Shown here piece after piece: positions 280 to 63,998 of a stretch of 64,000 nucleotides of DNA. The notes under the pieces were generated by a model, which saw nothing but the letters and a program-made list of their open reading frames with translations, made no database searches and was not told the origin of the DNA. Location: contig CALUHR010000013.1 of assembly GCA_944320495.1 (NCBI GenBank), positions 384,001-448,000 on the forward strand, read 5' to 3'. The DNA comes from Candidatus Methanomethylophilaceae archaeon. Lineage in GTDB: Archaea; Thermoplasmatota; Thermoplasmata; Methanomassiliicoccales; Methanomethylophilaceae. Both the position numbers and the translations under genes were made by a program. Position 1 is the stretch's first letter. Every line of letters starts with the position of its first letter.

Positions 280-894
280 ATGCCGAACTTCGACGATGTT
301 TACTGGAACTCTTTCCTGCCTGCCTTCTTCGACAGGATGAGCGTCCTGATGAGGAAGAACATGACGCACATCGTCGAGGACTACGGTCTCACGAGCGCTC
401 ACGCGATCTACCTCATAGCGCTGAAGCTGCAGGACGGCCAGACCCTCGTCAGCCTGTCCCGCTTCCTCGACCTCGACACGGCGAACACCAACCGCGTGAT
501 CAAGGTCCTCAGGTCCAAGGGCCTCGTCTACGACGACAGGAGGTCGGAGAACAGCAAGAAGTACTCCATCTTCCTGACCGAATCAGGGAGGGATCTCGCC
601 ACCAGGCTCATGGACGGCATAACGGAGCTCAACAACCAGTACTTCGCCGACATCCCCCGCGAGGACATCCTCCACATGCGCAAGACGCTGATCCATGTCT
701 GCAACAACATGAACATGGACATCGACGGATACATGGGCTCGAAGCACGAGAACCCGTTCTTCACGCTCCTGCACATAACCCCTCTGGACGGCGACTACGC
801 CACCGAGTCCAGGCGTCTCGTGGAGCCCGCCATGGCGGCTCGCGAGAAGGCCTGTGCGGCCGACACCGGAGTCTCGGGGGTAAGGTCCGCATGA
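280..894 (+). CDS. MarR-family transcriptional regulator
   Basis: Winged-HTH pattern (LSRFLDLDTANTNRVIKVLRSKGLV...YSIFLTESGR). ATG 280 preferred over GTG 154. ATGA overlap with the next gene. Confidence 0.85.
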   Translation: MPNFDDVYWNSFLPAFFDRMSVLMRKNMTHIVEDYGLTSAHAIYLIALKLQDGQTLVSLSRFLDLDTANTNRVIKVLRSKGLVYDDRRSENSKKYSIFLTESGRDLATRLMDGITELNNQYFADIPREDILHMRKTLIHVCNNMNMDIDGYMGSKHENPFFTLLHITPLDGDYATESRRLVEPAMAAREKACAADTGVSGVRSA

Positions 895-1457
895 GCAGGA
901 TAGTCGCCGTGGTGGCCAGCCCGCGCGAGGAGGGGAACTCCAACGCGATCGTGGACGCCATCCTCGAAGGGGCCATGGGCCTCTCCACCAACATCATCGA
1001 CCTCTACGCCCTCGACGGCCTCCGGCTCGTCCACGGCTGCAGGGGATGCAGGGCCTGCAAGACGTCGGGGAGATGCGCCCAGGACGACGAGATCTCCGAC
1101 GTGCTGGAGGCCATCCGCGAGGCGGACTGCGCGGTGTTCTCCACGCCGGTGTACTTCGCGGCCGAGTCCGCCCAGTTCAAGGTCCTGGAGGATCGCATGT
1201 TCTCGTTCATCGGAGCCGACGGCAAGCCGAACCTGGAGCCCGGCAAGAGGGCGATCCTGGTGGTCACCTGCAGCGGCCCGGAGGATGCGGCGGCGGCCGC
1301 GACGGTCGAGCGCCTCTCGGCGATAATCCCTCGGCTGGGTTTCGACCTCACGGATACGATCGTGTTCTCGGATGCCGGAGGCACCCGTCGCGCGGCCGAC
1401 GACGCTGACCTCATGGCGAGAGCGAAGGCCGTCGGTCTCTCGATGAGGAACACCTGA
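891..1457 (+). CDS. Flavodoxin-like iron-sulfur flavoprotein / NADPH-dependent FMN reductase family
   Basis: SPREEGNS FMN loop, CxGCxxC(x5)C motif, STPVYF. Confidence 0.85.
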   Translation: MSRIVAVVASPREEGNSNAIVDAILEGAMGLSTNIIDLYALDGLRLVHGCRGCRACKTSGRCAQDDEISDVLEAIREADCAVFSTPVYFAAESAQFKVLEDRMFSFIGADGKPNLEPGKRAILVVTCSGPEDAAAAATVERLSAIIPRLGFDLTDTIVFSDAGGTRRAADDADLMARAKAVGLSMRNT

Positions 1458-1673
1458 TCGCTCCTCGTCGTCCTCGACGTACTCCAGGATGTCCCCCGGC
1501 TGGCAGTCGAGGGCCTTGCATATCCCGTTCAGCGTCGAGAATCTTATCGCCGCGATCTTCCCGGTCTTGATGTTGGACAGGTTGACGTTCGATATCCCGA
1601 CCTTCTCGGCCAGCTGGTTGAGCTGGATCTTGCGGTCGGCCATGACCCTGTCCAGGCGGAGTATTATCGTCAT
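1458..1673 (-). CDS. Cro/CI (YozG-like) HTH regulator, 71 aa, ending at CGA
   Basis: LDRVMADRK...IRFSTLNGICKALDCQPGDILEY is the complete small family protein. An in-frame CGA at 1458-1460 abuts the stop of the convergent gene. The standard code would extend it to TAG at 795. Confidence 0.85.
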
Positions 1674-1677
1674 GGGA

Positions 1678-2181
1678 TCACAGCGTGTGGTCCGACTCGT
1701 CCTGGAGGACGGCCCCGTAGCGGAAGACGATCGACAGGCAGTACATCACGACGCATACGAGCAGCGTTCCGAGGAAGATGAACAGCGCCTCGGTCACGGT
1801 GCTCCCTGCCCCGATCTCCAGTGACAGCAGCACGAACGATGACACCAGGTAGACGATTGAGACGGCCTTCATCGAGGATGCGATGCCCTCGGTGAAGGGG
1901 GTGTGCGAATCACGGAGGGCGATCATCATCCTGCGGATGGAGTCCACCGTGACGGAGCCCAGCAGGAGTATGAAGACGGTCTCGGCGAAGCGGAATCCCT
2001 CCAGGTCGCCGAACACGGCGTAGAACGGCTCCAGGGCCTCATGGAAGCTGTCCGAGGCCATCGACGCGATGCCGAGTATAACTGTGATCGCGATGCATGC
2101 CGCGAGGACGATCTCCCCGGCCGCCATCACGGTGGCGGCGTAGCGGCATATCTTCCTCAGGGTCCCGAGGTCACCCTTCAT
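1678..2181 (-). CDS. DUF2975-family membrane protein
   Basis: Four hydrophobic helices, C-terminal FRYGAVLQDESDHTL, and the typical position directly upstream of a YozG-like HTH gene. Confidence 0.8.
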   Translation of the reverse strand: MKGDLGTLRKICRYAATVMAAGEIVLAACIAITVILGIASMASDSFHEALEPFYAVFGDLEGFRFAETVFILLLGSVTVDSIRRMMIALRDSHTPFTEGIASSMKAVSIVYLVSSFVLLSLEIGAGSTVTEALFIFLGTLLVCVVMYCLSIVFRYGAVLQDESDHTL

Positions 2182-2257: not shown

Positions 2258-2476
2258 TCAGTCCCTGCCGTTGATCTCGTCGGCGACCTTCTCCAGGTCC
2301 TCGGGGATGATCGGCTTGCCGGCTGCCTTCCTGGCCATGTGGCCTCCGGGTCCGCCGCGAGCGACGCGGGCCTTCTCGAGGCATTCTGGGCTGTCGCAGA
2401 CGAACGACGCATAGGCGATGTTCTTGCAGGGTCCCCCGCAGAACTCGCACTTGTAGTCTTCGAGATTCAATGCCAT
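2258..2476 (-). CDS. Small putative Zn-binding protein (72 aa)
   Basis: CEFCGGPC...VCDSPEC, host-like codon usage, followed by a hairpin. Confidence 0.7.
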   Translation of the reverse strand: MALNLEDYKCEFCGGPCKNIAYASFVCDSPECLEKARVARGGPGGHMARKAAGKPIIPEDLEKVADEINGRD

Positions 2477-2518
2477 TGTCCCACCGGATGCTTTCGTAGG
2501 ATATACGGGTCACCCGCA

Positions 2519-3319
2519 TCGGTTTAGGTCCATGCCGAACACGACGGACGGTGCCGCGTATGTGATCGATCCCAGGGAGACGATGTCCGCCCTGCCGATG
2601 TACGCCGGGATGTCGTCCGGGGAGATCCCTCCGGAAGCTTCGACGAGGATGCGGTCGCTGACCGCCTTGACGGCGTCGCGGATCTGTCCGGTCAGCTCGG
2701 GACCGCAGTTGTCGGCCATGACGATGTCCGCTCCCATCTGGGCGGCGGTGACGGCGTCGTCGACGTTCTCCACCTCGACCTCCACCTTCACGGCGAAGGA
2801 CCTCTTGGAGAGTCTCTCCATGCAGGCGCGGACGCCCCCGCACGCCTTGATGTGGTTGTCCTTGACCATGATCATGGAGTCGAGGCCCATCCTATGGGGG
2901 TCGCCACCAGCGATCCTCACTGCCTCCTTCTCGAAGTCGCCGAACCCGGGGGTGGTCTTCCTGGTGGCCGCGACGACGATTCTCCCGTCGGCCTTCGCGA
3001 CGGCCGCGGAGGTCGCGGTGGCGACCCCCGACATCCTCATCAGGATGTTCAGGGCCGTGCGCTCGATGGTTATCATGGACCTCATGGGTCCGGAGAGGGA
3101 GAGGACCCTCGTGCCGGCCGCGACCCTGTCCCCGTCCCTCACGAGGGGCGTCACGGACACCCCGGCGGACTCGAACAGGTCCTCCACGATCGAGATCCCG
3201 GCGACGGTGCAATCGCCCTCGCAGACGATGCGGGCGGTGCCGTCCGTGTCCGGGACCGTCAGCTCGGTGGTGATGTCGCCGCGGCCCACATCGGCCCTGA
3301 GGAACCTCTCCGCGTCCAT
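2519..3319 (-). CDS. nadC: Nicotinate-nucleotide diphosphorylase (carboxylating), QPRTase
   Basis: ATRKTTPG, HRMGLDSMIMVKDNH, EVEVEN, EASGGI motifs. CGA at 2519-2521; standard-code TGA at 2510. Confidence 0.95.
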
Positions 3320-3321
3320 GG

Positions 3322-4557
3322 TCACACGTCCAGCTCGAACTCCTCGCCAGTCTTCGGCAGGAGCACGTTGTAGTCGGTGAGGTCGGGAAGGAACTTCTCG
3401 CGCGCTTCGGAGTGCATGAAGATGACGTTGTCCGGGTCGCAGGCCTTGATGAACTCGATGATCTGGTCGTGGTCCGCGTGGGCCGAGAAGTCGTACTTCT
3501 GCAGCTCACACTCGACCTTGCAGATCTCGCCGTCGATGTTGACGCAGCGCTGCTCCATGAGCATCCTTCCGTTGGTGTCCTCGGCCTGGTATCCGACGAG
3601 GAGGATGGCGCTCTTCGGGTCGTTCTTGATCTTGTTGAGGTAGCGGATGACGGGGCCCCCGTCCAGCATGCCGCCGGTGGTGACGATGATCTGGCCCTTC
3701 ATGGCGATGTCCCTGCTGCCGGGCCTTCTGACCTCGTTGAACCTCTTCTTGGCCTGCTTGAGCTGCCTCTCGTCCCTGAGGTACTCGGGGTAGTCGAGGA
3801 ACAGGCGGGTGACGGAGCGTCCCATGCCGTCTACCCACATCTCGTAGTCCAGGTCCTTCAGGAGCATCATGATCTCCTGGGTCCTGCCCACGGCGAAGCA
3901 GGGGATGAGGACGGTTCCGCCGCGGTCGATGACCTCCTCCACCTTGGCGAGGAACTCCCTCTCCGTCTGCTTCCTCGGAGGGTGGTTGCGGTCCGCGTAG
4001 GTCCCCTCGATGAACAGGTTGTGGCAGTCCTTCGGCTTGGCGCCCTTGACCAGCCTCTGGGCCTCGGTGTGGATGTCGCCCGAGTAGATCGTGGTGGTGT
4101 CGCGGGCGAACTCGAACATGGCCGCCCCGGGGACGTGTCCCGCATCGAGCATCGCCACGTCGACGTGGCCGACGGTGATCTCGTCGCCGTAGGTCATGGG
4201 CACGACGCACTGCATGGTCCTCTCGATGTCGTCGGCGGTGTAGGGCTGGACGTAGTTCTCCGCCTTGGCGATCTTGAGGGTGTCCTTCATCATCAGCTCC
4301 GCGACCTCGGCGGTCAGGGGGGTGGTGAAAACCTCGCACCTGTCCCTTCCGACGACCTGGGGGACCATCCCGCAGTGGTCCAGGTGGCAGTGGGTGAGGA
4401 ACATGTGGTCGATCTTTGGCGCCTCCAGAGGGAACTCCGGGGGCTTGGTGGGGCTGAGGCCGTACTCCACGAGGAGCCTCATCCCGTCCCCTTCCATCGT
4501 CATTCCCATGCGGCCGACCATGTCAGCGCCGCCCAGAAACTTGAATTTCATTTTCAT
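3322..4557 (-). CDS. Beta-CASP metallo-beta-lactamase ribonuclease (aCPSF2-like)
   Basis: THCHLDH, AGHVPG, YSGD, EGTY, FAVGRTQE and FSAHAD motifs. Start taken as MKMKF. Confidence 0.92.
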   Translation of the reverse strand: MKMKFKFLGGADMVGRMGMTMEGDGMRLLVEYGLSPTKPPEFPLEAPKIDHMFLTHCHLDHCGMVPQVVGRDRCEVFTTPLTAEVAELMMKDTLKIAKAENYVQPYTADDIERTMQCVVPMTYGDEITVGHVDVAMLDAGHVPGAAMFEFARDTTTIYSGDIHTEAQRLVKGAKPKDCHNLFIEGTYADRNHPPRKQTEREFLAKVEEVIDRGGTVLIPCFAVGRTQEIMMLLKDLDYEMWVDGMGRSVTRLFLDYPEYLRDERQLKQAKKRFNEVRRPGSRDIAMKGQIIVTTGGMLDGGPVIRYLNKIKNDPKSAILLVGYQAEDTNGRMLMEQRCVNIDGEICKVECELQKYDFSAHADHDQIIEFIKACDPDNVIFMHSEAREKFLPDLTDYNVLLPKTGEEFELDV

Positions 4558-10276: not shown

Positions 10277-11412
10277 TCGACGTCGCGGTGGCGGGAGGCG
10301 GACCCGCGGGAAGCGCGGTCGCCGCCCTCCTGGCCCGCGACCACGGCGTGATGGTGTTCGAGGACCATCCGCGCATAGGGCTCCCGGAGCAGTGCGCAGG
10401 GCTCCTCACCGATCGCGCCATAGAGGCGTCCGGGGTCTCCCCGGACGTCCTCTCCACCTTGTACGGGGCCGAGGTCCTCCTCCCGGGTGGGGGCAGGGTC
10501 GAGGTCCGCTCCGAGCGTCCGAAGGCGAGGGCCGTGGACCGTTCGGACCTTGATTCGAAGATGGCCGACAGGGCCATGGCCGCCGGTGCCGAGTACAGGC
10601 TCTCGGAGAAGGTCAGGTCGTTCTCCGTCGGGTCGTCCGTGGGGATCTCCACGTCCGCCGGGGACCACAGTGCCAGACTGCTCATAGGGGCCGACGGTCA
10701 CGGGTCCGTGGTCGCTCCCGCCGTGGGCTGCGTCCCCGGCGAGCGCATACGCGGGGTGCAGGCCGATGTCGCCGTGAGGATGGAGGACCAAGGGATGTTC
10801 CGCATGCGCATGGGCTCGAGGTACGCCCCCGGATTCTTCACGTGGGAGATCCCCTGCGGGGACTTCACCCGCGTCGGGCTGTGCACGTCATGGTCCGCCG
10901 GTCCGCCGTATCAGTATCTGAAGAGGCTGCTCTCGGACCTGGGGTACGGGGACCGCGTCATACGGATGCACAGCGGCAGGATACCGATGCACCCGTCCGG
11001 GCCGATATCCTCGGACAGGGTGATGCTCATCGGCGACGCCGCCTCGCAGGTCAAGCCGGTCTCCGGAGGGGGGATACTGCCTTCGATGGTTGCCGCCCCC
11101 ATACTCGCGGATGTGGCGCATTCCGCCCTCGCATCCGACGACCTCTCGGCGAGGAGGCTCTCCGAGTACGACAGGCGCTGGGATGACGCCATGGGGAGGG
11201 ATCTGTCGAAGGCGTACCGCCTCCGGAGGGCGCTCCTGAGGATGGACGACCGCGACCTGGACCGTGCCGGTCGCTACGCCTCGAGGGACGATGTCCGCGC
11301 GGTGCTGGACGGCATAGACCTGGACACGCCCGCCGATGTGATGAAGGCGCTCCTGAGGCATCCGGGCATGGCGGCTTCGGGCGCCTGGACGCTCCTGAGG
11401 TGCTTGATATGA
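10273..11412 (+). CDS. Geranylgeranyl reductase family FAD oxidoreductase
   Basis: GGGPAGS, CAG, IGADG and [14 protein letters not shown] motifs. Confidence 0.9.
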
Positions 11413-12440
11413 GGCGCGTGCCGATGGCCGAGGTGCCCTCGCGGATCGCGGGGGAGACGATAAACAGGCTGATGTCCCTCGGATACGTGGACATCCACGC
11501 CAGGATAGCGAAGGGCGACGGCTGCCGTCTGGTGCCGATACTGCCGGAGCACGTGGACGACGTCTCCGCGATGGGGTTCGCCATCACGGAGGGAGACGCC
11601 CATTCGCTGGACCGCAGGACGCCCCAGGAGAGGATCTCGGAGATCCTCGGGGGCATACCTGAACTGAGGGGTCATCTGCCCGACCGCTGGGAGTTCGTCG
11701 GTGACATCGTCATCCTGAAGCTGGACCCGTCCTGCGAACCGTATCTCGACGGCATCGGTGACGCCTATGCGAAGGTGCTCGGCGCCAAGACCGTGTGCGC
11801 GGACGTCCACGGCGTGTCCGGGGAGTTCCGTCAGCCCAGCATGAGGGTGATCCACGGCACCGAGACCGAGTCGGTGCGTCTCGAGAACGGCATCCGTTAC
11901 CGCTTCGACGTCACCAAGGTCATGTTCGCCTCCGGCAACACGGACGAGCGCATGCGCATGAGGAGCCTGGACTGCACCGGCGAGACCGTCGTGGACATGT
12001 TCGCTGGCATAGGGTACTTCACCCTCCCGCTGGCCAGGTTCTCTGGGGCCCGCAGGGTCTTCGCCTGCGAGAAGAATCCCGAATCCTACCATTATCTGGT
12101 GGAGAACGTCCGTCTCAACGAGGTGGGCGATGTGGTGCTGCCCATGCTCGGTGACAACCGCTCCATCCCGGGCAGGGACTTCGCGGACCGCATCCTGATG
12201 GGGTACGTGCAGACGACATCGGAGTTCCTGCCGGCGGCCCTGAGGATGATACGCATCGGCGGGATCATCCACTACCATGACACCTTCCCGGTGGGCGACC
12301 AGGCCCGCAGGGTCGACGAGATCTTCTCGCCGCTCTGCGGATACGAGGTCCTGGGGATCCGCGAGGTGAAGTCCTTCGCCCCGTCGGTGTCCCATTACGT
12401 CGCCGACGTCAGGATAACTTCTCGTTCGCCCCGCAGGCGA
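11409..12440 (+). CDS. taw2: Met-10+/TYW2-like SAM-dependent tRNA-modifying enzyme (Taw2-like)
   Basis: FDVTKVMFASGNTDERMRM, VVDMFAGIGYF, DRILMGY, IIHYH. CGA at 12438-12440; standard-code TAG at 12456-12458. Confidence 0.8.
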
Positions 12441-15999: not shown

Positions 16000-16009
16000 G
16001 GTCTGATGC

Positions 16010-17518
16010 ATGAGACTGACCGCCGAGAACTACGACATCGGCATCGCCGAGCCGACGGCGTTGCTGCACGAGGACGACTGCAGGATCATCGGGATCCGCG
16101 AGGGCGACCACGTCCGCATCGAGGGGCGCGGATGCGTCACCGCGATAGCCAGCATGTCGGACACCCTGGTGAGGCGGGGCACGGTCATGATAGCCTGCGG
16201 GGTGCTCGGCGCCAGTTGCATCCACCCCGGCGATGAGGTGGAGGTCACCGCCGCGCCGATCCCGGAGTCCGTGAGGGCCATCCGCGGCAAGATGGACGGG
16301 GAGGAGCTGTCCCCGGAGGAGATCTCGCAGATCGTCGACGACGCGGTCCATGACAGGCTGTCGAGGATCGAGACCTCCGCATGGCTCACCGCCCTACACA
16401 TACGCGGCATGTCCATGTGCGAGACGGCGTCCTACACCAGTGCCATGGCGTCCACCGGCTCGGTCCTGGACTTCGGGGACCGCCGCGTGTTCGACTTCCA
16501 TAGCTTCGGAGGGGTCCCGGGCAACAAGATCACACCGATCGTGGTGTCGATCGTCGCGTCCGAGGGCCTGCTGATCCCGAAGCTCTCGTCGAGGGCCATA
16601 AGCAGTGCCTGCGGGACGGCCGATTTCGTGGAGGTGTTCTGTCCGGTGACCCACGGCTCGGACGATGTCCGCAGGATCGCGGAGTCCGAGGGCGGGGTGT
16701 TCTCCTGGACAGGTGCCACCGACCTGGCCCCCGCCGGGGACCGCTTCATCAGGGTCCAGCGTCCGCTCGGTATCGATCCGAAGCCGCAGATGCTCGCGTC
16801 GATCATGGCGAAGAAGGTCGCTGCCGGTGCCACCGATGTGCTCATGGACATCCCGATGGGGTCCGAGACCAAGGTCAGGTCCCCGGAGGAGGCCAAGGCC
16901 TACGCCCGCGACCTGATGGAGCTCGGGGACCTGCTGGGCATGAGGGTGGAGTGCGCGGTCACGTACGCGGACCAGCCCCTGGGCGTCGCCGTCGGGCCCG
17001 CGCCGGAGGCGAGGGAGTGCATCCAGGTGCTCGAGAACAGGCCGGGCCACGAGGAGGTGGCCGAGAAGGCATGCATCTGCGCCGGGATGATCCTGGAGAT
17101 GGCCGGGATGTGCGACGGCACCGTCCGCGCGAGGGAGTGCCTGACGTCCGGCCGCGCCCTGGAGAGGTTCAGGGCGATCGTCCGCGCCCAGGGCGGTATG
17201 GACGGGATAACTTCCGAGGACGTACGGCTGGGGCGCTTCTCCGCCGATGTCGTCTCGCCGAGGGACGGTTTCGTCAACCGCATATCGAACAGGGCCGTGG
17301 TCTCCGTGGCGAAGGCCGCCGGTGCCCCGGCGGACAAGGGCGCCGGGCTCGTGCTCTCGAGGAAGCGCGGGAGGAAGGTCGCGAAGGGCGACGTGCTCAT
17401 GACGGTGTACTCGGACAGCGAGGACAAGCTGGAGGACGCGCTGGAGGCGGCCGCGGAGCTGGAGCCGTTCGACATCGACGGGATGCTGCTGGACAGGATC
17501 AGGCCCGGCTCCCTCCGA
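16010..17518 (+). CDS. deoA: AMP phosphorylase (thymidine phosphorylase family)
   Basis: N-terminal beta-barrel extension, HSFGGVPGNK, SSRAISSACGTAD, SIMAKK, DKGAG. Ends CGA-TGA (17516-17521). Confidence 0.92.
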
Positions 17519-26674: not shown

Positions 26675-28144
26675 TCGCTCGGCGGAACCGAACAGATCCA
26701 TGACCCTCTTGGTATCCGGGGAAACATCGGAATGGAATCTGAATCCGTTGCTCACGATGGTCACATATCTCGAGGCCAGCGAGAACGCGTCATCAACTGT
26801 GAGTCTGGAGTCGCCGTCTTCGAGAATCTGGGCTATGGCGGTGCGTATGCCTGTTGACAGGAACATCAGGAACCTTTCCCATCCATGACTTCCTGATGAA
26901 TCGGCCGAGAAGATGCTGTCGATGAGTGCATGGGATTGCTTCAGAGTCATGCTCCTCAGATTAATGAGATCCATGGCATACTCCCATTGCTCTTCCGTGG
27001 TCAGTATCACCGATGATCCGATGCATCCGTCAATCTCTGATATCAGATGCGATGTCGCGGAGTCATTGTGCGGCAGATTGTTGTACCTCAGCATCCTAGA
27101 TACGCTGGATTCCGTGTATCCGATGCTCTTTGTCATGTTCCTGATGTGGCGGACCGGTTTTGTCAGGAACACATTAAAGGTGAACATGCAATCATCATTT
27201 CCTCTGCCACGGTCGACATATGTCCAAGCTCCGTTGTTCAGTCTTATCCCGAGACATCCTTGGTACACATCATGCTCTATTCCATGATGCTCAGCTTTGT
27301 GATATTCTGTGGCCATCATGCCCAGGGCTGAGCGCAGAGTGTCAGAGCATGTCCCGATTCTCATAGTCATCCTGTCTCCGTCCATGAGCATCCTGGCGAT
27401 CTCCGGGGGATTGTCCGAAATCTCGTCCAGGACCCTGACGAGTCTGACGTTCGTACCTGTCGCGATGGCCATGCGTCTCCACGCACCCGCGTTCATGCTC
27501 CTGCCGATGGTAGCGCCTGCGGCTATGGGGCGGCCCATGTCATCGGAGCAGAAAATCAGCGACACGTCGTCCGCATCGTGGTCCATCGGGCTCTTCATGG
27601 ATGCGTGTCTGAGTCCCCCGTTCCTGCCCGAGAGTCCGAAGACGATGACAGGGCCGTCGGATCCCTCGCGGATCGTCCATGCATACCTCTTGATCGATTC
27701 GTAGTCTATCTTCGATATTGCCCTTCTGATCAATCCAGCGGTGGATGCTGCATCGCCGAGGACCGGTTCGAGGTCCAAACCTCTGAGGAGACGGATACGG
27801 TCGGCACTAGGCAGGGGATTGATCGCATAGCAGATAGCCAATGCGAGCATCATGTCTCCGTCATCGCCGAAGACGCATCTGAGTGCATCCCTCATCCCGC
27901 ATCTCTCTGCTGCGTTGGAGGCAATCAGCACGCTTCCGCGATCGAGGGTGGAGAACCTTCCATCGGACAGCATGGAGCATGCCGCATCGATCGGCAGCGG
28001 TTTCACATCGACCATCCCGGTCTTCGGATCGAGGATGCCGATGTACTCCTTCATGCTCACAGGGTTCTTCCTACCAGGGACGCGTCTCGACTCCGTCCGG
28101 TAGACGTACGTCCTGCCGTTCCTTTCCACGTACACTATGGGCAT
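26675..28144 (-). mobile_element. IS1634-like transposase-derived ORF (degenerate)
   Basis: The N-terminus RNGRTYVYRTESRRVPGRKNPVSMKEYIGILDPKTG matches the IS1634 pattern. Lower GC, no clear DDE motifs, no terminal repeats seen. CGA at 26675; standard-code TGA at 26642. Confidence 0.65.
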
Positions 28145-28179
28145 GATGCGGGAGAGCGGTCGGGGATCGGGCCCCCGGA

Positions 28180-29316: not shown

Positions 29317-29388
29317 GGCCCTGTGGGGTAGCGGATATCCCGTCAGATTTCGGCACTGACAATCCGGGTTCGATTCCCGGCAGGGCCG
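29317..29388 (+). tRNA. tRNA-Arg(TCG), structurally atypical
   Basis: GGCCCTG/CAGGGCC acceptor, loop TTTCGGC, canonical T-arm, A20 present. It has an A31-A39 mismatch and G15-U48. CCA is not encoded. Confidence 0.85.
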
Positions 29389-29397
29389 CCTGTTTCT

Positions 29398-32879: not shown

Positions 32880-34427
32880 TCGCAGTTTGAGCAGTTTATC
32901 CGGGTTCGCGGCCCGGAGTATGAGGGGTTCCAGCCCTCCGAATGCGTCCGGGAGTGCGAAGCTCCCTCCGGCGGTGTCGCACGGCACGTACACCAGCCCC
33001 TTGACGCTGGGCTTGCTCAGCTTCAGCTTGGAGTGCGTCTGCGAGCACTGGGTCAGGTACATCTCCACCAGCCTGGACGCCTCGGTCCTGGTGCAGAGCG
33101 GGATGAACACGGTGCGGGATCCAGGGGACCCCTCGGATGCGGAGTCGGCGAGGCGGCCGATCCCCGCGCTCCCGCTGATGCTGTGCTCCTCGCCTTTGAG
33201 GCGGTTCAATATGGAGCTTTCGGGAGCCGCTGCGAAGATGTCGGTCAATCCCGAGCGGGGGTCGGACAGCGCCCTCTCGAACACCGTGAACACGGCGGGG
33301 ACCATCAGGTCCTCCTTCACGACCACGGACTTCTTGGAGAGGAACGAGCCGGTGGTGAAGCTGTACTGCAGGTCCACGTCCCAGAAGGGCATCAGCGAGT
33401 CGCCTCCGCCCTGGCATATCGGTATCGTGCCGCCGTTCTTGGCCGCCACGACGTCGTTGACGTAGCCGTAGAGCTCGAAGTCGCGGGCCTCCGACGTCAG
33501 CAGCCTGTTCCATTGCGGGTTGTCCGGGTATTCCGCGGAGGCGACCCCGTTGATCAGCGTGAGCGTCTTGAGCGGGTCCTTGGACGTGCCGTTGTTGACC
33601 ATGTCGACCACGTTCTTCAGCGTCCTGGTCTGGGAGATCTCCATGTCCACAGCCCTGAGGGTCACGGCGAGCCTGGGGTTGGAGAGCAGCTCCCTCTTCG
33701 CCGCCTCCAGCTCGGAGAGCCCCTCCTCCGCCTTGGCGGAGCATCCGAGGGCGTCCCCGTTGAGCACCATGTCGGATGCAGCGCAGACGTCGGACAGCGC
33801 CCTGAGCCTGGATGCGAGCGGCTCGTACCCTTCGCACTTCGCCATTGCGTCCGCCGATTCGAGGAAGTTCTTCGACATGATGGCGAAGCGCCCGGGGGAC
33901 CCGGTCTCGGTCAGCAGCTTGGAGTTGTTCAGTATCATCGCATAGGCGTTGGCGATGCCCTCGCCGGTGACGATGGATTTCCTGCTCTCGTCGTCCACGG
34001 CCATGGGCTCGACGCTCTTCAGCCTGGCCTGGAACTCGAAGGCCTGCGTGGAGGTGTGGTCGGACCTGACCGGCTCCCCCTTGCTGAACGGGAGCACGAT
34101 GAGCGGCGAGGCGATCACGGAGTTCAGCGCGAAGCGGTACTCGTTGATCTCCACGTCCACCCTGGGCTTGACGCTGTTGACGTATATGCTGTGCCTGGCG
34201 ACGGGGTCCACGTTGTCGACCGACCCCATGGCGAAGCCGCCGGGGATGGTCTTGGCGATCCAGCTCTGGATCTGCCCCATCATCTGCTCCATGTACTTCC
34301 TGGCGTCCAGCCTCTGCTGGGTGGTGCCGCAGCTGGGGCAGGTTATGTAGGGGGAGTCGGACTCTATGTCCTTCCTGTCGAGGGGCGCGCCGCAGTACTT
34401 GCAGCGCAGCTCAACCATGTCGTCCAT
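32880..34427 (-). CDS. N-terminal zinc-ribbon protein (YdjG-like)
   Basis: CKYCG...CPSCG, helical middle, PFW and YVP motifs in the C-terminal part. CGA at 32880; standard-code TAG at 32832. Confidence 0.75.
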
Positions 34428-34428
34428 C

Positions 34429-35358
34429 TTATCTTCCCATCCTCGCGAAGGCGATCTGGCTCTGCAGCGCGGCGATCTCCGCCTGCAACCTGGCCTCCAT
34501 CGCCATCATCTCCCTCATGGACTGCTGGTAGTACTCGTTGGCGATCTCGTCGGAGCGGTTGGAGATCGCGGTGTAGCATGCCTTGCAGACGTAGATGTGG
34601 TCGTACCCCTCCCTGGACGCCGCGGCCGCAGAGGCCTTGTCCTCCAGGGACTTGGGCGCCTCCGCGGGGGCCGCGTAGAAGTTGATGCCCTCCCCGGTGG
34701 CGATCCTGCCGCATATCCAGCAGGTGCAGGTGGCGGAGTACTCCCTCACCCTGCGCAGGTTCTCCTCGGCGGACTGCCCGTTCTGCTGCCTGTACCCCGC
34801 CGCGATCTGCTGGTACTCCGCGGCCTGGGACGGATTCTCCCCGACGGTCGCGTCCGCCATGATCTCGTATGCCAGGGCCATGAGGTTGTAGAACTCGGTG
34901 GTCCCGGTGACGGAGGTGTCCTTCCTGAAGAGCGAGAGTGCGATCAGGCTGCGGTCGCCGATCCTGGACTGGAAGTCCTGGGCGAGAGCTATGAGCTGCT
35001 GTCCGCGCTCCATGCCGGACGTCCTGTCGCCGGATGAGAGCAGGGTCATCTTCCTGATGGTGAGCTCGCACTCCGTCTTCATCTCCGCCACGTCGATGGT
35101 CTCCAGCCCGAACTGGACGGTCGTGGCGGAGGTCAGCCTCTCCAGGGTCGTCAGGAGGTTCTGGTATGCCTGCATGCTGCTGAGCCTGTCCGACAGGTCG
35201 ATCAGGGCGACCTGTACGGCCGCGACGTCGTCCGTGCCGCCCTCCTTGTCTATGGATTTGATGAGGTAGTCGCGGGCCTTGTCGAACTCCCCTCTCTTGA
35301 TCAGCTCCTGGCTGTCATCGTAGAGCTCGTCGCCGTTCTTGAATAGCTTGAAAGCCAT
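34429..35358 (-). CDS. TPR-like helical protein with Zn finger and C-terminal coiled coil
   Basis: Helical repeats, CWIC...CKAC, then MREMMAMEARLQAEIAALQSQI. Confidence 0.75.
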   Translation of the reverse strand: MAFKLFKNGDELYDDSQELIKRGEFDKARDYLIKSIDKEGGTDDVAAVQVALIDLSDRLSSMQAYQNLLTTLERLTSATTVQFGLETIDVAEMKTECELTIRKMTLLSSGDRTSGMERGQQLIALAQDFQSRIGDRSLIALSLFRKDTSVTGTTEFYNLMALAYEIMADATVGENPSQAAEYQQIAAGYRQQNGQSAEENLRRVREYSATCTCWICGRIATGEGINFYAAPAEAPKSLEDKASAAAASREGYDHIYVCKACYTAISNRSDEIANEYYQQSMREMMAMEARLQAEIAALQSQIAFARMGR

Positions 35359-53964: not shown

Positions 53965-54291
53965 TCGCTCGGGAAGGCGCTCGATCCTGAAGATGACGGG
54001 TCTCGTCCCGTCGTTGCAGCAGGCGATCATGACGCCGTCGTCCCTGTTCCACCCGTCCATGATGGCTCCGCCGTTCATGGCGGCGTAGACGTACCTGCTG
54101 ATGCAGCTCCATGCCTCCGAGCAGAACCTCCCGTGCATCAGATGACGCCATTCGTCGGGGGTGACGATGAACTCGTCGCCCGGGTGGAATAGCGAGCACG
54201 GCCCCGTCTCGGGGTTCGACAGATACTCCTTCTGGAGGTCATCGTAGCATCTGCATTCGAGGACGGTGATCCTCACGTTGTGCATCGTCAT
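53965..54291 (-). CDS. TIGR04076-family protein, copy 2 (ends at CGA)
   Basis: AWSCISRYVY...IACCNDGTRPVIFRIER. ATGA overlap with copy 1. CGA at 53965; the standard code would extend it to TAG at 53323. Confidence 0.88.
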
Positions 54292-54641
54292 TCCGACTCC
54301 TCCTCGTCGAGCCTCTCTATCCTGAATATCACCGGTCTCGTCCCGTCGTTGCAGCAGGCGATGAACTGCCTGTCGTCCCTGGACCAGCCCGTCATCGGCG
54401 ACCCGCCGTGTAGCGCCGTGTAGACGTACCTGCTGATGCAGTCCCACGCCTCGGCGCACGGGAAGTTCCCTCCGAGCATGTGCCAGAAGTCCTCCCTGCT
54501 GCCGTCGTTCCATGAGAAGACGAACTCCTGCCCCACATCGAAGAACGGGCACGGCCCCGCCTTCGGATCCATGAGGTATTGCTCCTGCAGCCTCTCGTCG
54601 CACTCCTTGCGGAGTACGGTGACCTTGCATCTGTGCTCCAT
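54288..54641 (-). CDS. TIGR04076-family protein, copy 1
   Basis: GPCPFF, FPCAEAWDCISRYVY, IACCNDGTRPVIFRIER. Confidence 0.9.
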   Translation of the reverse strand: MEHRCKVTVLRKECDERLQEQYLMDPKAGPCPFFDVGQEFVFSWNDGSREDFWHMLGGNFPCAEAWDCISRYVYTALHGGSPMTGWSRDDRQFIACCNDGTRPVIFRIERLDEEESE

Positions 54642-59627: not shown

Positions 59628-60005
59628 TCGAAGGGCCGATGGGGGAACCCGAGGGATGACGCGGTCCACCTCGTTCTTCGCCCATGGCACGGTGTCCAGA
59701 TACTCATCGCGGTCGAAGGACAGCTCGTCCGGCAGCTCCGAGAACAGGCGGGACTCCATCTCGCAGTCCTCCCTGACCTTCCTACCGAGGATCGCCGCGC
59801 ACACGTCGCAGTACCCGATGTCGCGGGTGGCCACAATCTCGATCTCGTACCCCGCCTCCTCCAGGAACTCCCTCGCGGCGGCCTGGGCGGAGGTCTCTCC
59901 CTCCTCGACGTGTCCGCCGGGCATCTCCCAGCCCTTCCTGCGCCTGTGCCAGACCATCAGGAACCTGTCGCCGTCGAAGGCCACGGCGTAGGCGGTCCTG
60001 CCCAT
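59628..60005 (-). CDS. NUDIX hydrolase
   Basis: Nudix box GGHVEEGETSAQAAAREFLEEAG. CGA at 59628; standard-code TGA at 59619. Confidence 0.9.
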
Positions 60006-60006
60006 G

Positions 60007-60660
60007 TCACGCCCTCCTGGCGACGATCATCCTGTGGTCCTTCTCGTAGGGTTCCAGGGACCTGGAGTCGACGATGCGGTAGCCCCTCTCGCGTATGCGG
60101 GCCTCCGCCTGCTCGAAGATCCTCTCGGGCGGGGCCGTCACGTCCTCGGACCTGGCCTTCACGGCGACCATCCCCCACTGCGCGTTGAACGCGTCCATGT
60201 TGTCGCAAAGGATGTCAGCCTGGTGCTTCTGGGCCACGTCCTGGTACACCGCGTCCACCCTCTCGGCGAACATGGCGTACTCCTCCGGCTTCGTGGCATC
60301 CCCCAGCACCGGCATCATCATGGGCCTGCCCTCGGAGTTCCGGACCAGCTCCCTGAACATCCTCGGCGCGAACTCCACGCAGACGACCCTCCCGTCGCGG
60401 ACGATGTCGGCCACGTGCGACGGCGTCGTTCCGCTGGACGCTCCGAGGTAGAGCACGGTGGACCCCCTGCCGAACGGGACGTCCCTCCCGCCCGCGGTCA
60501 GGTACGCGGACAGCTTGCTCCTGCGCGGGTCCCACTCGCGGTATTCCCTGCCGCCGGAGGAGACCAGCCTCTCGCCGTATACCCTGAATCCGGGCCGTGC
60601 CGATTCGGTGTACAGCCTGCCGCGGTCCTCGAAGACGCCATCCGGTCCCAAAGGTTGCAT
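60007..60660 (-). CDS. flpA: Fibrillarin-like rRNA/tRNA 2'-O-methyltransferase
   Basis: VYGE, WDPRRSKL, VLYLGASSGTT, VEFAPR, YQDVAQ. Confidence 0.95.
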   Translation of the reverse strand: MQPLGPDGVFEDRGRLYTESARPGFRVYGERLVSSGGREYREWDPRRSKLSAYLTAGGRDVPFGRGSTVLYLGASSGTTPSHVADIVRDGRVVCVEFAPRMFRELVRNSEGRPMMMPVLGDATKPEEYAMFAERVDAVYQDVAQKHQADILCDNMDAFNAQWGMVAVKARSEDVTAPPERIFEQAEARIRERGYRIVDSRSLEPYEKDHRMIVARRA

Positions 60661-60711: not shown

Positions 60712-62322
60712 ATGATAACGATGCGGGACCTCGTGGCCATCGCCGACGCGGTCCAGGAGGCTGTCGACAGCATACCCAGTTCGGAGGAGCGGGGCAAGAA
60801 GGTGTGCATGGGCGCGGACGGGTCGTGCTCGTCCGAGGTGGACAAGGTCGCCGAGAACGCCGCCCTGATGTACATCGAGCGCGAGCATCTGCCGCTGAAC
60901 GTCCTGAGCGAGGAGATCGGCTACGTGGACAACGGCGGCGAGGAGGTCCTGGTCATGGACCCGGTCGACGGGACGTCCAACGCCATAGCCGGGCTGCCGC
61001 TGTACACCGTGTCCCTGGCCGTGGGCGCCTCGTGCCTGTCCGATGTGCGCCTGGCGTACATGAGGAACCTCGCCACCGGCGACGCCATGTGGGCGGAGAG
61101 GGGCAAGGGGGCGTTCAAGAACGGCGAGCCCATCCACGTCAGGCGCGCCGAGCTGGACGACATCTTCCTGATGATCTACGAGGGCAACGGGGCCCACCCG
61201 GATGCATTCTCCGTCGCCAAGGTCGTCCGCTCCTCCAGGTCGCTGGGCTGCACCTCCCTCGAGATGGGCATCGTCGCCGAGGGCCAGGCGGACGGCTACT
61301 TCATGAAGGCCGAGAAGTACACCCGCTCGGTCCGCGTGGTGGACATCGCCGCCAGCTCCCTCATCCTGAGGGAGGCGGGAGGGGAGGTCTACGACCTTGA
61401 CAACAACGTCCTCGACATGCCCTTCGACCTCGAGCACCGCTCCAACTTCCTCGCCGTGGGCGACCGGAGGATCTACGACATCATCGTCAGGCACAGGGTC
61501 AGCCACGTCCACAGGTACGGGGTGTACGCGAACGCGCATATAGGCAACATCCTGGACCCCGCCCGCAGGGTCATCGACGTGCTCAGGGAGGAGGGCGCCG
61601 ACTTCTGCGTAGACACCGAGATCGCCGATGCGCTGGGAGTCCCGGGCATACCCCTGTCCAGGATGGGCGCTGACATCGTGATCGTCGTCGGAGGGGACGG
61701 CACCATCCTCCGCGCGCTCCAGGCCACCGACGCCATAATCGTCGGCGTCAACGGCGGCAGCGTGGGGTTCCTCGCGGAGATCGAGACCGACGGCATCGAG
61801 GAGGGCATCAGGAGGCTACTGGCCGAGGACTACATCGTGGAGTCCAGGTTCAAGATCGCCACCTTCTACAACGGCGAGTACCTGAAGGACTCGGTGAACG
61901 AGGCCGTGGTGCACACCGACACGATCGCCAAGATCCGCCACTTCAGGGTGTACGTCGACGACGTGCTCGCCTCGGAGCTCAGATCCGACGGCGTCATAGT
62001 CTCCACCCCGACCGGGTCCACCTGCTACGCGATGTCCCTCGGTGCCCCGTACATGGATCCGAAGGTCGAGGCGATGATGGTGGTCCCGATGGCCGCCTAC
62101 AGGTTCAACTCCCGCCCGTTCGTGGTCCCCGCCACATCCAAGGTCACCGTAGAGAACGTCCTGGACAAGGGATGCATCATCGTGCTGGACGGACAGGAGG
62201 AGATCTACATGGAGGGAGGGTCCAAGGTCGAGTTCATGATGTCCGAGAGGAGGGCGAGGTTCGTCCGCTTCGACACCGACTTCTACTCCAGGGTCAAGGA
62301 CAAGCTGGTGAACTCCCTATGA
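60712..62322 (+). CDS. ppnK: Bifunctional inositol-monophosphatase-like NADP phosphatase / NAD kinase
   Basis: SEE and DPVDGT in the IMPase domain, then GGDGT, NE and STPTGSTCYAMS in the NAD kinase domain. Confidence 0.92.
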   Translation: MITMRDLVAIADAVQEAVDSIPSSEERGKKVCMGADGSCSSEVDKVAENAALMYIEREHLPLNVLSEEIGYVDNGGEEVLVMDPVDGTSNAIAGLPLYTVSLAVGASCLSDVRLAYMRNLATGDAMWAERGKGAFKNGEPIHVRRAELDDIFLMIYEGNGAHPDAFSVAKVVRSSRSLGCTSLEMGIVAEGQADGYFMKAEKYTRSVRVVDIAASSLILREAGGEVYDLDNNVLDMPFDLEHRSNFLAVGDRRIYDIIVRHRVSHVHRYGVYANAHIGNILDPARRVIDVLREEGADFCVDTEIADALGVPGIPLSRMGADIVIVVGGDGTILRALQATDAIIVGVNGGSVGFLAEIETDGIEEGIRRLLAEDYIVESRFKIATFYNGEYLKDSVNEAVVHTDTIAKIRHFRVYVDDVLASELRSDGVIVSTPTGSTCYAMSLGAPYMDPKVEAMMVVPMAAYRFNSRPFVVPATSKVTVENVLDKGCIIVLDGQEEIYMEGGSKVEFMMSERRARFVRFDTDFYSRVKDKLVNSL

Positions 62323-62693
62323 CGAGGATACGCGGGGTGGACGTGGACTTCATAGACGCCTTCAACGAGGCGGCCCGTTCCACCTACCCCGACGAGTTCC
62401 TCTGCATGCACCGCGAGATCGACGGCATCATCAGCGAGATGGTCATGCTGCCAGGGACGGTGTACGGGGACTCGCACAGCTTCCTGAACCAGTGGATGGC
62501 CCCGATAGACTACAGTCTGGCGGGCTCCGCCCACTCGCACCCGGGGTACTCGAACGAGCCCTCTGATGCCGACAAGGACTTCTTCAGGAACACAGGGGGC
62601 ATCCACTTCATAACGTGTCAGCCATACGACAGGACCAGCTGGCGCGCCTATGACTCCTACGGGGAGCCGGTAGACATCGAGGTCATCTACCGA
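62319..62693 (+). CDS. JAB/MPN (Mov34) metalloprotease, 124 aa, ending at CGA
   Basis: E...HSHP...PSDAD JAMM motif. ATGA overlap with ppnK. CGA at 62691 abuts the stop of the convergent gene. The standard code would extend it to TAG at 63842. Confidence 0.88.
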
Positions 62694-63998
62694 TCACTCG
62701 GCCCTGAGGACGCGCTGGACCAGTTCGTCGGCCATCTCCATCAGGCCGATGATGTAGGCCATGTCCTGGGACTCGGCTATTGTCTCGACGACCTGGTCCT
62801 CCCCGTCCTGCCTGAGGCGCACGAGGAACCATCCGCCGTCCATGGACACGCGGAACTCAGATCCGTACTGGGAGGTCCTCCCAGCCACCTGCCCGAGGTT
62901 CTCCTCCACGGCCCTCCTGAACACATCGGGCCTCATCTGACACTCGTAGGTGCGGCTGTCGCGGATGTAGGACGGCAGCCTCTCCGTGACCGAGTGGAGG
63001 CTGTTGCCCCCGGCCATCTTGGCGATGGCCGCCGCGGTGCGCACGCCGTCTCCTATGGCGGCTCCGCCCCCGAAGACGATGCTGCCGTGGTAGTATCCGA
63101 GGTCCGCACCGGACGCGACCGCCTCGCATATGGCGGCGGCACTGTCCTGGGTCATCACGGCGCTCCTCTCCGGCGGTTCCTCGAACGGGGTGCTCACCTC
63201 GACGTCTATGCGACCCATGAGGGCGTCCTCGATCACCGACGGGGCGTCTGCGGTGATGGCGATGGTGGCCGGTCTCATGTACAGGACCAGGAGGGCGAAC
63301 ACGCGGTCCATGGGTATCACGTCGCCCTGCTCGTCCACGACGTCGACGGCCGTGCCCACGGGGTTGATCCCGATGCCGATGCTTCCCGGGGTCGCCCCGA
63401 CGAGTCTCTTCAGCCCGTCGAGCGAATCCTCGTCCGCCGTCGGGAGCGGGTGGAAGTCCTCGTCCCACTGCGCGTTGACAGCAAGAACGTCGGCGCCGAG
63501 GGCGTTGAGGATCTGGGGGACGGAATGGGCCCCGCATCCGCACCGGCAGTCCACGACGACGGTGCATCCGGCGCCCCCCACGAACATGGACTCGACCTTC
63601 GCGTTGTACTCCTCGGTGATCCCGTCGCGGATGGAGTAGCCTCCGAGACCTTCGTGATCCGGGGCCGGCGGGGGGTTCTGGAGGACGACCTCCAGGTGCC
63701 TGATCTGGTCGTCCCTGAACAGGCTCCCGTCGGGATTGACGAGGAAGTACCCGCTGATCATGCCCGGGCGGGCGGCGACGTACACCAGGCAGTCGCCCAG
63801 GTCCGAGCGGCTGGCCGCCACGGGTATCCCTACGACACCTAGGTCGATGACGTCCGCCCCCTGGGACAGCAGCCCCGAGATCACGGCGTCTGCCATCATC
63901 GAGCTGCTGCGCATCGGGTCGCGAGCGACGACCACCCTGCCGTGGTCCGCGGCAAGGGCCCTTCCGAGCACGATGCCGTCCTCCGGGGACATCTCCCC
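62694..63998 (-). CDS. Phosphoglucomutase/phosphomannomutase-fold protein, degenerate active site (5' partial)
   Basis: LGRAL, VVVARDPMRSS, VVVDCRCG, ILNALG, DGVRTAA patterns. The frame stays open to the window edge. Confidence 0.8.
   Translation of the reverse strand, partial: GEMSPEDGIVLGRALAADHGRVVVARDPMRSSSMMADAVISGLLSQGADVIDLGVVGIPVAASRSDLGDCLVYVAARPGMISGYFLVNPDGSLFRDDQIRHLEVVLQNPPPAPDHEGLGGYSIRDGITEEYNAKVESMFVGGAGCTVVVDCRCGCGAHSVPQILNALGADVLAVNAQWDEDFHPLPTADEDSLDGLKRLVGATPGSIGIGINPVGTAVDVVDEQGDVIPMDRVFALLVLYMRPATIAITADAPSVIEDALMGRIDVEVSTPFEEPPERSAVMTQDSAAAICEAVASGADLGYYHGSIVFGGGAAIGDGVRTAAAIAKMAGGNSLHSVTERLPSYIRDSRTYECQMRPDVFRRAVEENLGQVAGRTSQYGSEFRVSMDGGWFLVRLRQDGEDQVVETIAESQDMAYIIGLMEMADELVQRVLRAE

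Follow-up and report, generated by a model that had tools for sequence, protein, structure and literature searches.

To our knowledge, all accepted changes of the genetic code in which a sense codon turned into a stop are organellar, as in NCBI translation tables 2 (AGA/AGG), 22 (TCA) and 23 (TTA), and our literature search likewise returned organelles only. UCA and UCG stops are described in green-algal mitochondria (PMC6821328). As for CGA, the yeast factors eRF1/eRF3 are reported to misdecode this rare codon (PMC7379694), and a 2026 preprint by Melnykov describes CGA as wholly absent from the recognisable domains of two archaeal assemblies and raises the possibility of a stop, while stating that such methods cannot infer stops and leaving the question open (10.64898/2026.04.02.715157). 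Here we analysed a stretch of 64,000 nucleotides (the window) from a Candidatus Methanomethylophilaceae archaeon (contig CALUHR010000013.1, positions 384,001 to 448,000), in which the gene of a small helix-turn-helix (HTH) regulator runs into an in-frame CGA. We propose that this HTH gene is intact with 71 codons and stops at the CGA, and that throughout the genus CGA is not an ordinary Arg codon and is likely terminated by the archaeal release factor aRF1; judging from comparative sequence data, we give this reading a probability of roughly 0.62. Our literature search retrieved no account of CGA acting as a stop signal in the clade, and neither “Methanom” nor “Thermoplasmat” occurs in the main text of the Codetta screen (PMC8629427).

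The initial annotation of the window had taken the HTH gene to be complete at ...DDEE, with the following CGA as its end, and this is borne out by orthologs, coding score and the coverage of public proteins. The product matches HTH_26 (PF13443) with 78.4 bits (cut-off 22; E 4.8e-22), residues 6-68 aligning with positions 1-63 of the 63-position profile, so that the domain is complete ahead of the CGA. The C-terminal sequence is ...CQPGDILEYVEDDEE, which through codon 71 reads ...GDILEYVEDDEE, and the residues directly before the CGA are ...ALDCQPGDILEYVEDDEE. With its CGA end the protein has 71 aa, one more than the approximate length first proposed, and fits the range of this single-domain family (~65-95 aa). 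Under the standard code (table 11), the open reading frame (ORF) would span positions 795-1673 and encode 292 aa. As had been observed, reading the CGA as Arg carries the frame antisense through the convergent flavoprotein gene and into the 3’ end of a MarR-like gene, up to a TAG, although the added length is 221 and not 222 codons. The mean codon log-odds score is +0.54 for the HTH part and -0.13 for the 221-codon extension, compared with +0.35 for the flavoprotein gene and +0.41 for the MarR-like gene; six more in-frame CGAs lie inside the extension and none in either of these two genes. A search of ~5.8 billion public proteins with the 292-aa ORF, limited to lengths of 160-511 aa, yielded 73 matching proteins, all of which cover 12-34% of the ORF, corresponding to the HTH part, and none of which covers the extension.

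Comparisons involved the window’s own assembly (G000; 1,768,794 bases in 14 contigs, 61.6% G+C), the complete congener G008 (a single contig of 1,664,211 bases, 53.5% G+C, 1477 ORFs), the further congeners G003, G004, G015, G018 and G019, and G030, an outgroup from another family. The presence of mcrA in G000 and of tRNA-Pyl in G008 (1290439-1290509) indicates that the source organism is a methanogenic archaeon of a pyrrolysine-using lineage. Orthologs of the HTH gene were assembled from 20 loci, 18 in the same genus (G000 included) and two in another family. A TGA or TAA at codons 72-77 closes the gene in 14 of the 20 (proteins of 71-76 aa), and CGA is the first terminator in six, namely G000, G018 (where the HTH gene is identical), G003, G019, G004 and G016. 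Four of these six combine a CGA at codons 71-73 with a long standard-code tail; in G004 the CGA likewise falls at codons 71-73 and the end reads CGA GCA GCG TAA, with the TAA two codons on, and in G016 CGA comes at codon 88, ahead of a standard stop at codon 93. The tail after the CGA differs even between G000 and the near-identical G018 locus, and none of the 20 loci carries the same extension behind an Arg codon other than CGA.

The HTH gene and a Prok-JAB gene, the two local cases noted earlier, are part of a genome-wide and genus-wide pattern. In both, as the initial annotation had pointed out, the geometry is tail-to-tail: the minus-strand CGA of the HTH gene (TCG on the plus strand), in frame with the HTH ORF, adjoins the flavoprotein TGA, and the CGA that follows ...EVIY in the Prok-JAB gene abuts the TCA (TGA) of a convergent gene at 62694-64082. 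In G000 as a whole, CGA is all but missing from gene bodies and stands at the positions of orthologous stops, the coding signal is lost behind it, and the tRNA and the release factor concerned are unlike those of outgroups. We called ORFs from stop to stop with a caller of our own, which uses an iterated codon log-odds score and greedy overlap resolution and leaves starts unset. In-frame CGAs in the standard-code ORFs of G000 are distributed over gene fifths as [283, 48, 17, 56, 383], that is, at both ends, compared with [434, 178, 146, 164, 344] for CGG and similar profiles for other rare codons. In mid-gene, 0.46 of every 1000 codons are CGA, while the same trinucleotide, counted in all frames, reaches 27.6 per 1000 and is among the commonest. 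Mean coding log-odds are +0.22 upstream of the first body CGA and -0.25 downstream (142 tails of at least 15 codons, 69% of them below 0.05), a drop seen for none of eight control codons (downstream values 0.17-0.30), and the median tail measures 18 codons after the first body CGA against 143-196 codons for the eight controls. Adding CGA to the three standard stops raises the number of resolved ORFs from 1195 to 1590, of which 1138 end with TGA, 385 (24%) with CGA, 50 with TAA and 17 with TAG; within the window, CGA ends 9 of 56 ORFs. Given the 17 TAG ends and the tRNA-Pyl(CUA) of the congener, TAG is probably ambiguous, leaving TGA and CGA as the main stops.

The position of these ends was compared with that of orthologous stops in 752 G000/G008 pairs aligned to the C-terminus, 137 of which are CGA-ended in G000. 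The first stop of G008 opposite these 137 ends is TGA in 123, TAA in 8 and CGA in 6 cases, which makes 131 of 137 with TGA or TAA. It lies at an offset of 0 codons in 71 pairs, 1-3 codons in 42, 4-10 codons in 18 and more than 10 codons in 6, so that 113 of 137 fall within 3 codons, and this spread matches that of 583 TGA-ended control pairs (368, 167, 41 and 7, respectively). Smaller samples from G015, G004 and G030 agree with G008 on ortholog stop positions.

Counting CGA inside genes called for homology-anchored counts: the rate in relatives could not be taken from long ORFs with G-rich first positions, which include shadow ORFs in high-G+C DNA, and the unfiltered list of aligned CGAs was dominated by the 5’ leaders of stop-to-stop ORFs overlapping upstream genes, for which flank filters were applied. 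Among stringently aligned codons (both flanks with an identity of 50% or more and a coding score above zero), CGA occurs 2 times in 161,145 in G000 and 3 times in 155,103 in G008. Sampled aligned codons gave 0/20,396 CGAs for G008, 5/22,319 for G015 and 7/29,340 for G004, all of the same genus, and 23/13,102 for G030 of another family, where 14 are aligned to Arg. Over the whole of G008, the profile by gene fifths is [79, 8, 3, 0, 40] and CGA ends 33 of the 1477 ORFs (2.2%). As far as these alignments tell, CGA is shut out of genes across the genus, and its share as a putative terminator ranges from ~2% of ORFs in G008 to 24% in G000, a range that could have arisen if TGA stops drifted from T to C under G+C pressure after CGA had begun to terminate. 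We consider the comparative support for clade-wide termination at CGA to be strong, sequence-based as it is.

Two further observations were made in the same alignments. CGG is also very rare in some congeners (9/20,396 aligned codons in G008 and 11/22,319 in G015, Arg-aligned in less than half), and it is commoner and mostly Arg-aligned in G000 and G004 (43/79 in the G004 sample); its meaning may be drifting too. One CGA in G008 (G008:C1:186605-187852, minus) stands opposite a G000 GGA (Gly) in a conserved ...YYVP-G-CPP... motif and could reflect an error in the sequence or an unusual site.

The cognate decoder of CGA, tRNA-Arg(UCG), is encoded in the window itself (listed below). All 12 congeneric copies of the G000 type retain the UCG anticodon, and all 12 have a non-Watson-Crick 31.39 pair, which is A.A, C.A or U.C (stems read by eye). 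The syntenic tRNA-Arg(UCG) of G008 carries C33 in place of the near-universal U33, together with A37 and a C.C mismatch at 27.43. A first pattern search in G008, G015 and G019 had matched only tRNA-Pro(CGG), the C33 hiding the G008 gene; for G042 (genus g11) a pattern search gave no tRNA-Arg(UCG), which does not imply absence. Each of the 13 congeners examined departs from the usual anticodon arm. In the outgroup copies, which come from five other families, C31 pairs with G39 and the stem is 5 bp long; most other genera of the family have the canonical 5-bp stem too, with one internal mismatch in g16. The altered arm is thus a feature of the genus that ends genes at CGA, and we infer that it would weaken CGA decoding.

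A single aRF1 gene (G000:C2:85936-87165, minus) accompanies a single Pelota-like gene in G000. Next to the NIKS motif, aRF1 of the genus reads ...NEQSQASNIKSKTTMKNV, compared with ...NE(Y/F)SQSSNIKSQxTRKNV in other families. Aligned with human eRF1 (offset +3), Met65 stands at R68, where outgroups have Arg, and Gln53 stands at F56. Residues beside NIKS have roles in codon choice in eRF1. The change from TRKNV to TMKNV or TLKNV is common to CGA-poor genera; it is absent in g19 and g20, and g21 and g27 have Lys. At residue 28, in the GTS-equivalent loop, G000 and G018 read RGRSTEL, and 28 of the other 30 aligned aRF1 sequences read RGRGTEL.

To see how far CGA loss extends, we surveyed ~19 kb around the aRF1 gene in 18 further genera of the family (19 loci; labels such as g11 and g12), with one congener alongside. 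Many of these genera have no CGA outside aRF1 (~2,300-3,400 aligned codons each), and g12, g19, g20, g21, g26 and g27 have 0.4-5 per 1000 aligned codons. Within aRF1, codon 78 of the genus is a single CGA, where every outgroup has Arg (...SIAA-R-LKTYK...). It is found in 22 of 23 congeners, the exception coming from a bin with 8% contamination, and its context is invariably (G/T)CT CGA CTN, with T before and C after. Other CGA-poor genera have exactly one CGA in aRF1, at codon 11, 25, 50, 123 or 326. Pooled over 13 CGA-poor loci, CGA makes up 11 of 5,109 aRF1 codons and 3 of 38,546 codons of neighbouring genes (Fisher p 1.4e-8), a pooling that was chosen after the counts had been seen and that involves related genomes. 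This distribution suggests that the in-frame CGA of the aRF1 gene could be a feedback site similar to that of prfB.

A second persistent CGA is codon 30 of the ribosomal protein L18e gene (G000:C13:191557-191913, minus), in the context TGG CGA GAY; 20 of the 21 congeners share it, as do all 9 of the loci taken from other families. Conservation of the nucleotides around it (ATC TGG CGA GAY AT) is unusually high and suggests a constraint that acts on the RNA. Neither of the two CGAs, in aRF1 or in L18e, has T next. Arg is needed at both positions, which accounts for the retained tRNA and gives CGA two meanings.

Other in-frame CGAs inside apparently coding sequence are few. A well-scoring in-frame continuation follows 12 of the 385 CGA ends, and eight of these, examined by eye, are the next gene in the same frame. 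A GmhA-like ORF (G000:C13:194143-194718, minus) ends in ...ELFGS-CGA and is followed in frame, with no start between, by a GmhB-like HAD phosphatase (AVFIDRDDTV...); the pair may be a read-through fusion. NifH-like and NifD-like ORFs, probably F430 synthesis genes, lie in one frame split by a CGA (G000:C5:81059-81964, minus, and downstream; G008:64185-66386), and G000 and G008 both keep this CGA, despite the low share of CGA ends in G008 (~2% of its ORFs). Two candidate sense CGAs, both followed by C, lie at G000:C8:55307-55687 (plus) and G000:C5:178067-178735 (plus), one in a flavodoxin-like domain (GKTI-R-PFCTNEGSG) and one before a C-terminal hydrophobic helix.

Convergent genes provide another view of CGA ends and show that tail-to-tail contact at CGA goes beyond chance. 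Out of 238 convergent pairs in G000, 29 have zero spacer, compared with 28 pairs for spacers of 1-20 nt taken together. CGA is involved in 28 of the 29, as CGATCG in 13 (for example G000:C13:369038-369043), as CGATCA in 8 and as TGATCG, the form found at the HTH gene, in 7. In a compact genome, palindromes of the CGATCG type would serve as stops for either strand, and they explain part of the T preference at the base after CGA. Of 108 high-confidence terminal CGAs, 70 are followed by T, 17 by G, 15 by C and 6 by A; when abutting reverse stops are excluded (80 remaining), the counts are 42, 17, 15 and 6.

If CGA is a stop in this genus, the single archaeal aRF1 would terminate at a codon one base away from UGA, outcompeting a presumably weakened tRNA-Arg(UCG). 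Termination would be the default, and the rare conserved CGAs, such as aRF1 codon 78 and L18e codon 30, would still be read as Arg. Once CGA acted as a stop, T-to-C changes in TGA stops would be neutral, and in a genome of such high G+C content about a quarter of the genes could have come to end with CGA, including the convergent pairs that share TGATCG, CGATCA or CGATCG. A more specific proposal, which we put forward tentatively and rate well below the first, is that in this clade of gut methanogens CGA has a dual meaning, default stop and Arg at a few protected sites, with aRF1 sensing its own level through the CGA in its gene. Its history might have begun with the Arg-to-Met change beside NIKS (human R68), conferring partial recognition of CGA. 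CGA would then have been eliminated from the genes of much of the family, apart from that at one aRF1 codon (11, 25, 50, 78, 123 or 326 depending on the genus) and at the order-wide codon 30 of L18e. In the present genus, the competing tRNA-Arg(UCG) would have been weakened by the 31.39 mismatch or C33, after which CGA could have become a full stop and spread under G+C pressure to a quarter of the genes.

Several points weigh against termination at CGA by aRF1. To a large extent, aRF1 has kept its NIKS, YxCxxxF and GT-loop motifs, and any effect of the Arg-to-Met change on codon recognition is conjectural. CGA is not a pure stop, since Arg is required at aRF1 codon 78 and at codon 30 of the essential L18e. 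The compensatory changes found in four stem pairs of the congeneric tRNAs indicate that tRNA-Arg(UCG) is functional. In the CGA-poor other genera, CGA is rarely a terminator (small samples) and the tRNA is canonical, so that the disappearance of CGA from genes can be separated from its recruitment as a stop. Finally, ORF totals such as 385 of 1590 are approximate, as they stem from a home-made codon-score caller without start codons.

Some of these points equally fit the alternative that survives best, which leaves the gene end at the CGA and differs in how the chain is freed: CGA would be an unassigned codon, poorly decoded owing to a scarce or crippled tRNA-Arg(UCG), at which stalling is followed by rescue, through aPelota/ABCE1-type splitting or through slow near-cognate action of an unchanged aRF1. 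This is a real alternative, although we consider it unlikely. A tRNA gene retained with an altered anticodon arm (31.39 mismatch; C33 in G008) and an aRF1 with conserved recognition motifs would be expected under it; genera with a canonical tRNA that avoid CGA and yet seldom end genes with it would represent an avoidance stage, and unassigned codons are known in bacteria, for example CGG in Mycoplasma capricolum. Stalling would, however, be costly for ~24% of all genes, and CGA stops are kept between species, being found at both stops in 6 pairs with G008 and 5 pairs with G004. CGA also has a next-base preference of its own, typical of release-factor recognition. Nearby backup stops are no more frequent past CGA than past TGA: the next standard in-frame stop lies at a median of 24 codons past CGA and 28 past TGA (Mann-Whitney p 0.14), which gives no sign that read-through needs catching. 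From these sequence patterns we infer peptide release by aRF1 rather than stall-and-rescue.

Editing of C to U in the mRNA would turn CGA into UGA and leave the standard code in place, as is well known from plant mitochondria, where such editing creates stops. Parts of G000 are present in the chicken-gut metatranscriptome runs X1, X3 and X4 (X2 is probably DNA) as contigs of ~200-600 nt, which are too fragmentary to reveal the base at any CGA stop or any transcript end; no RNA contig spanning the HTH CGA (L190 18458-18460) is among the matches listed, and two that span the CGA at L190 4285-4287 are. Out-of-frame CGA is abundant, however, at the 27.6 per 1000 given above, and editing blind to frame would change NCG|A codons to Val, Leu or Met. 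In orthologs, GCG stays Ala in 79.2% of 849 cases with A next and in 78.2% of 2563 cases with another base next, and across NCG codons the “edited” residue amounts to 0-3% whether or not A follows. Frame-blind editing is excluded by these residues, and the reading frame is known to the ribosome only. Editing of the conserved CGAs would moreover truncate aRF1 and L18e, which makes this explanation very improbable.

Least probable of all is a stop-loss in which CGA is plain Arg and the HTH gene, its TGA mutated from T to C, encodes a 292-aa protein or decays as a pseudogene, or else an assembly error at the C, since, although the frame is open for 292 codons under table 11, tRNA-Arg(UCG) exists and antisense frames open by chance in high-G+C DNA, the same CGA recurs in the independent assembly G018 and differently placed CGAs in G003, G019, G004 and G016, ~385 genes end alike with orthologous standard stops at the same spot, and the tail is non-coding in score, unlike between G000 and G018, and without a match among public proteins of 160-511 aa. 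Two other candidates were rejected. A terminal C produced by a modified base during sequencing is discounted, as many independent assemblies show the pattern, with frequencies that vary among them, and as no chemistry is known to us by which T would be read as C; cleavage of the mRNA at CGAUCG to give run-off ends is discounted, as CGA also ends genes with a co-oriented, in-frame next gene.

Termination at CGA thus remains our preferred reading, and apart from its stop signal the HTH protein is itself ordinary. Like other HTH_26 (YozG-like) regulators, it has a full profile match, a size of ~71 aa and a putative upstream membrane-protein partner; it differs from them in the stop signal only. 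The membrane-protein gene upstream is probably its operon partner, and G008 and G015 have conserved counterparts next to their HTH genes (37-39% identity). HTH_26 regulators are known to pair with DUF2975 membrane proteins; the 167-aa neighbour found here is membrane-like and co-oriented and matches no Pfam family. Beyond this pair, almost no gene order is shared with the window in 100-kb stretches beside the HTH orthologs of G008, G015, G004 and G030. Many public HTH_26 proteins of 160-460 aa, with stray domains such as a ClpX-type ATPase, match the HTH ORF over its 71-aa part only, at 55-87% identity, and are probably mis-calls by CGA read-through in related genomes. The features of the window are listed in Table 1.

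Table 1. Coordinates of the HTH locus, of the other CGA-ended ORFs and of tRNA-Arg(UCG) in the window.
Feature	Position	Strand	Details
MarR-like regulator	280..894	plus	MarR_2 25.1 bits vs cut-off 27; Pfam matches below curated cut-offs
Standard-code extension of the HTH ORF, judged spurious and non-coding	795..1457	minus	221 codons + TAG 795-797; antisense to flavoprotein and MarR-like genes
FMN-reductase/flavodoxin-like flavoprotein	891..1457	plus	188 aa; TGA 1455-1457; FMN_red E 1.5e-17
CGA codon 72, likely functional end of the HTH gene	1458..1460	minus	Forms TGATCG with the convergent TGA
HTH_26 (Cro/C1-type, YozG-like) regulator, coding part	1461..1673	minus	71 codons, ATG 1673-1671 to ...DDEE
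Membrane protein	1678..2181	minus	167 aa; same strand, 4 nt upstream of the HTH gene; without Pfam family
nadC (quinolinate phosphoribosyltransferase)	2519..3325	minus	CGA 2519-2521; QRPTase_C complete (169/169) at residue 269 of 271
Trm5/TYW2-type methyltransferase ORF (stop-to-stop)	11337..12440	plus	CGA 12438-12440
Nucleoside/AMP-phosphorylase-like ORF (stop-to-stop)	16007..17518	plus	CGA 17516-17518, then TGA at once
ORF without known family (stop-to-stop)	26675..28159	minus	CGA 26675-26677
tRNA-Arg(UCG), cognate CGA decoder	29317..29390	plus	A31.A39 mismatch; 4-bp anticodon stem
ORF without known family (stop-to-stop)	32880..34442	minus	CGA 32880-32882
Small ORF (stop-to-stop)	53965..54303	minus	CGA 53965-53967
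NUDIX hydrolase ORF (stop-to-stop)	59628..60026	minus	CGA 59628-59630
Prok-JAB ORF (stop-to-stop)	62280..62693	plus	CGA 62691-62693; abuts TCA 62694-62696

Should the proposed history of a dual-meaning CGA hold, no earlier change of a sense codon to a stop would be known from a cellular genome, and its intermediate stages would survive in living relatives. The living states are graded, from families with normal CGA through genera that avoid it to a congener with 2% CGA stops and G000 with 24%. A cellular archaeon that ends genes at CGA would widen the known kinds of code change in cells and would give a natural system for studying how factors of the eRF1 family read the first base of stop codons. 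For such genomes, standard annotation pipelines would attach long spurious tails to the C-termini and absorb adjacent genes. Members of the clade are common in the guts of animals and supply synthetic biology with pyrrolysine tools, which gives their true code practical weight.

The closest precedents share parts of this picture. In the organellar cases, as in G000, the codon leaves gene bodies and appears at the positions of relatives’ standard stops. Those genomes are tiny and hold a handful of genes, whereas G000 belongs to a free-living archaeon with ~1,600 genes and a single omnipotent aRF1, and, unlike them, it keeps the cognate tRNA and a few CGAs read as Arg. Bacterial prfB, which encodes release factor 2, is autoregulated through an in-frame UGA by way of a +1 frameshift. 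The aRF1 gene is alike in holding an in-frame codon at which its own factor would terminate, and a factor ending at a codon of its own gene would, when abundant, cut its own synthesis; prfB needs the frameshift, while aRF1 would need plain read-through of CGA by tRNA-Arg(UCG), a comparison that draws on codon conservation. Reassignment by a short-stem tRNA has a trypanosomatid example. More broadly, tRNAs with 4-bp anticodon stems have been tied to codon reassignment (PMC13092985), and the likeness lies in a competitor of the release factor that has a shortened stem in a lineage with a changed code. The known short stems let tRNA-Trp read UGA, which is a gain, whereas here the cognate tRNA would have been weakened.

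In pyrrolysine-using methanogens, UAG is described as ambiguous between stop and pyrrolysine through competition of aRF1 with the tRNA (PMC12626013). This is the same kind of organism, and the two meanings of CGA would be settled by the same kind of competition; there, a stop gains an amino acid, and here an amino-acid codon would gain a stop. The yeast case (PMC7379694) is alike in showing termination by the eRF1 family at a poorly decoded CGA, a first-base neighbour of UGA. It concerns a low-level error on reporter repeats, as opposed to what would here be the normal end of about a quarter of the genes. The assemblies of the Melnykov preprint (10.64898/2026.04.02.715157) are unrelated to this clade, come, as described there, from hydrothermal vents, have ~50% G+C, read CGG as Trp and are without tRNA(UCG). 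The present case differs in its positional evidence from orthologous stops, in belonging to a family of gut methanogens, in a CGG that is mostly Arg (G004) and in the presence of tRNA(UCG).

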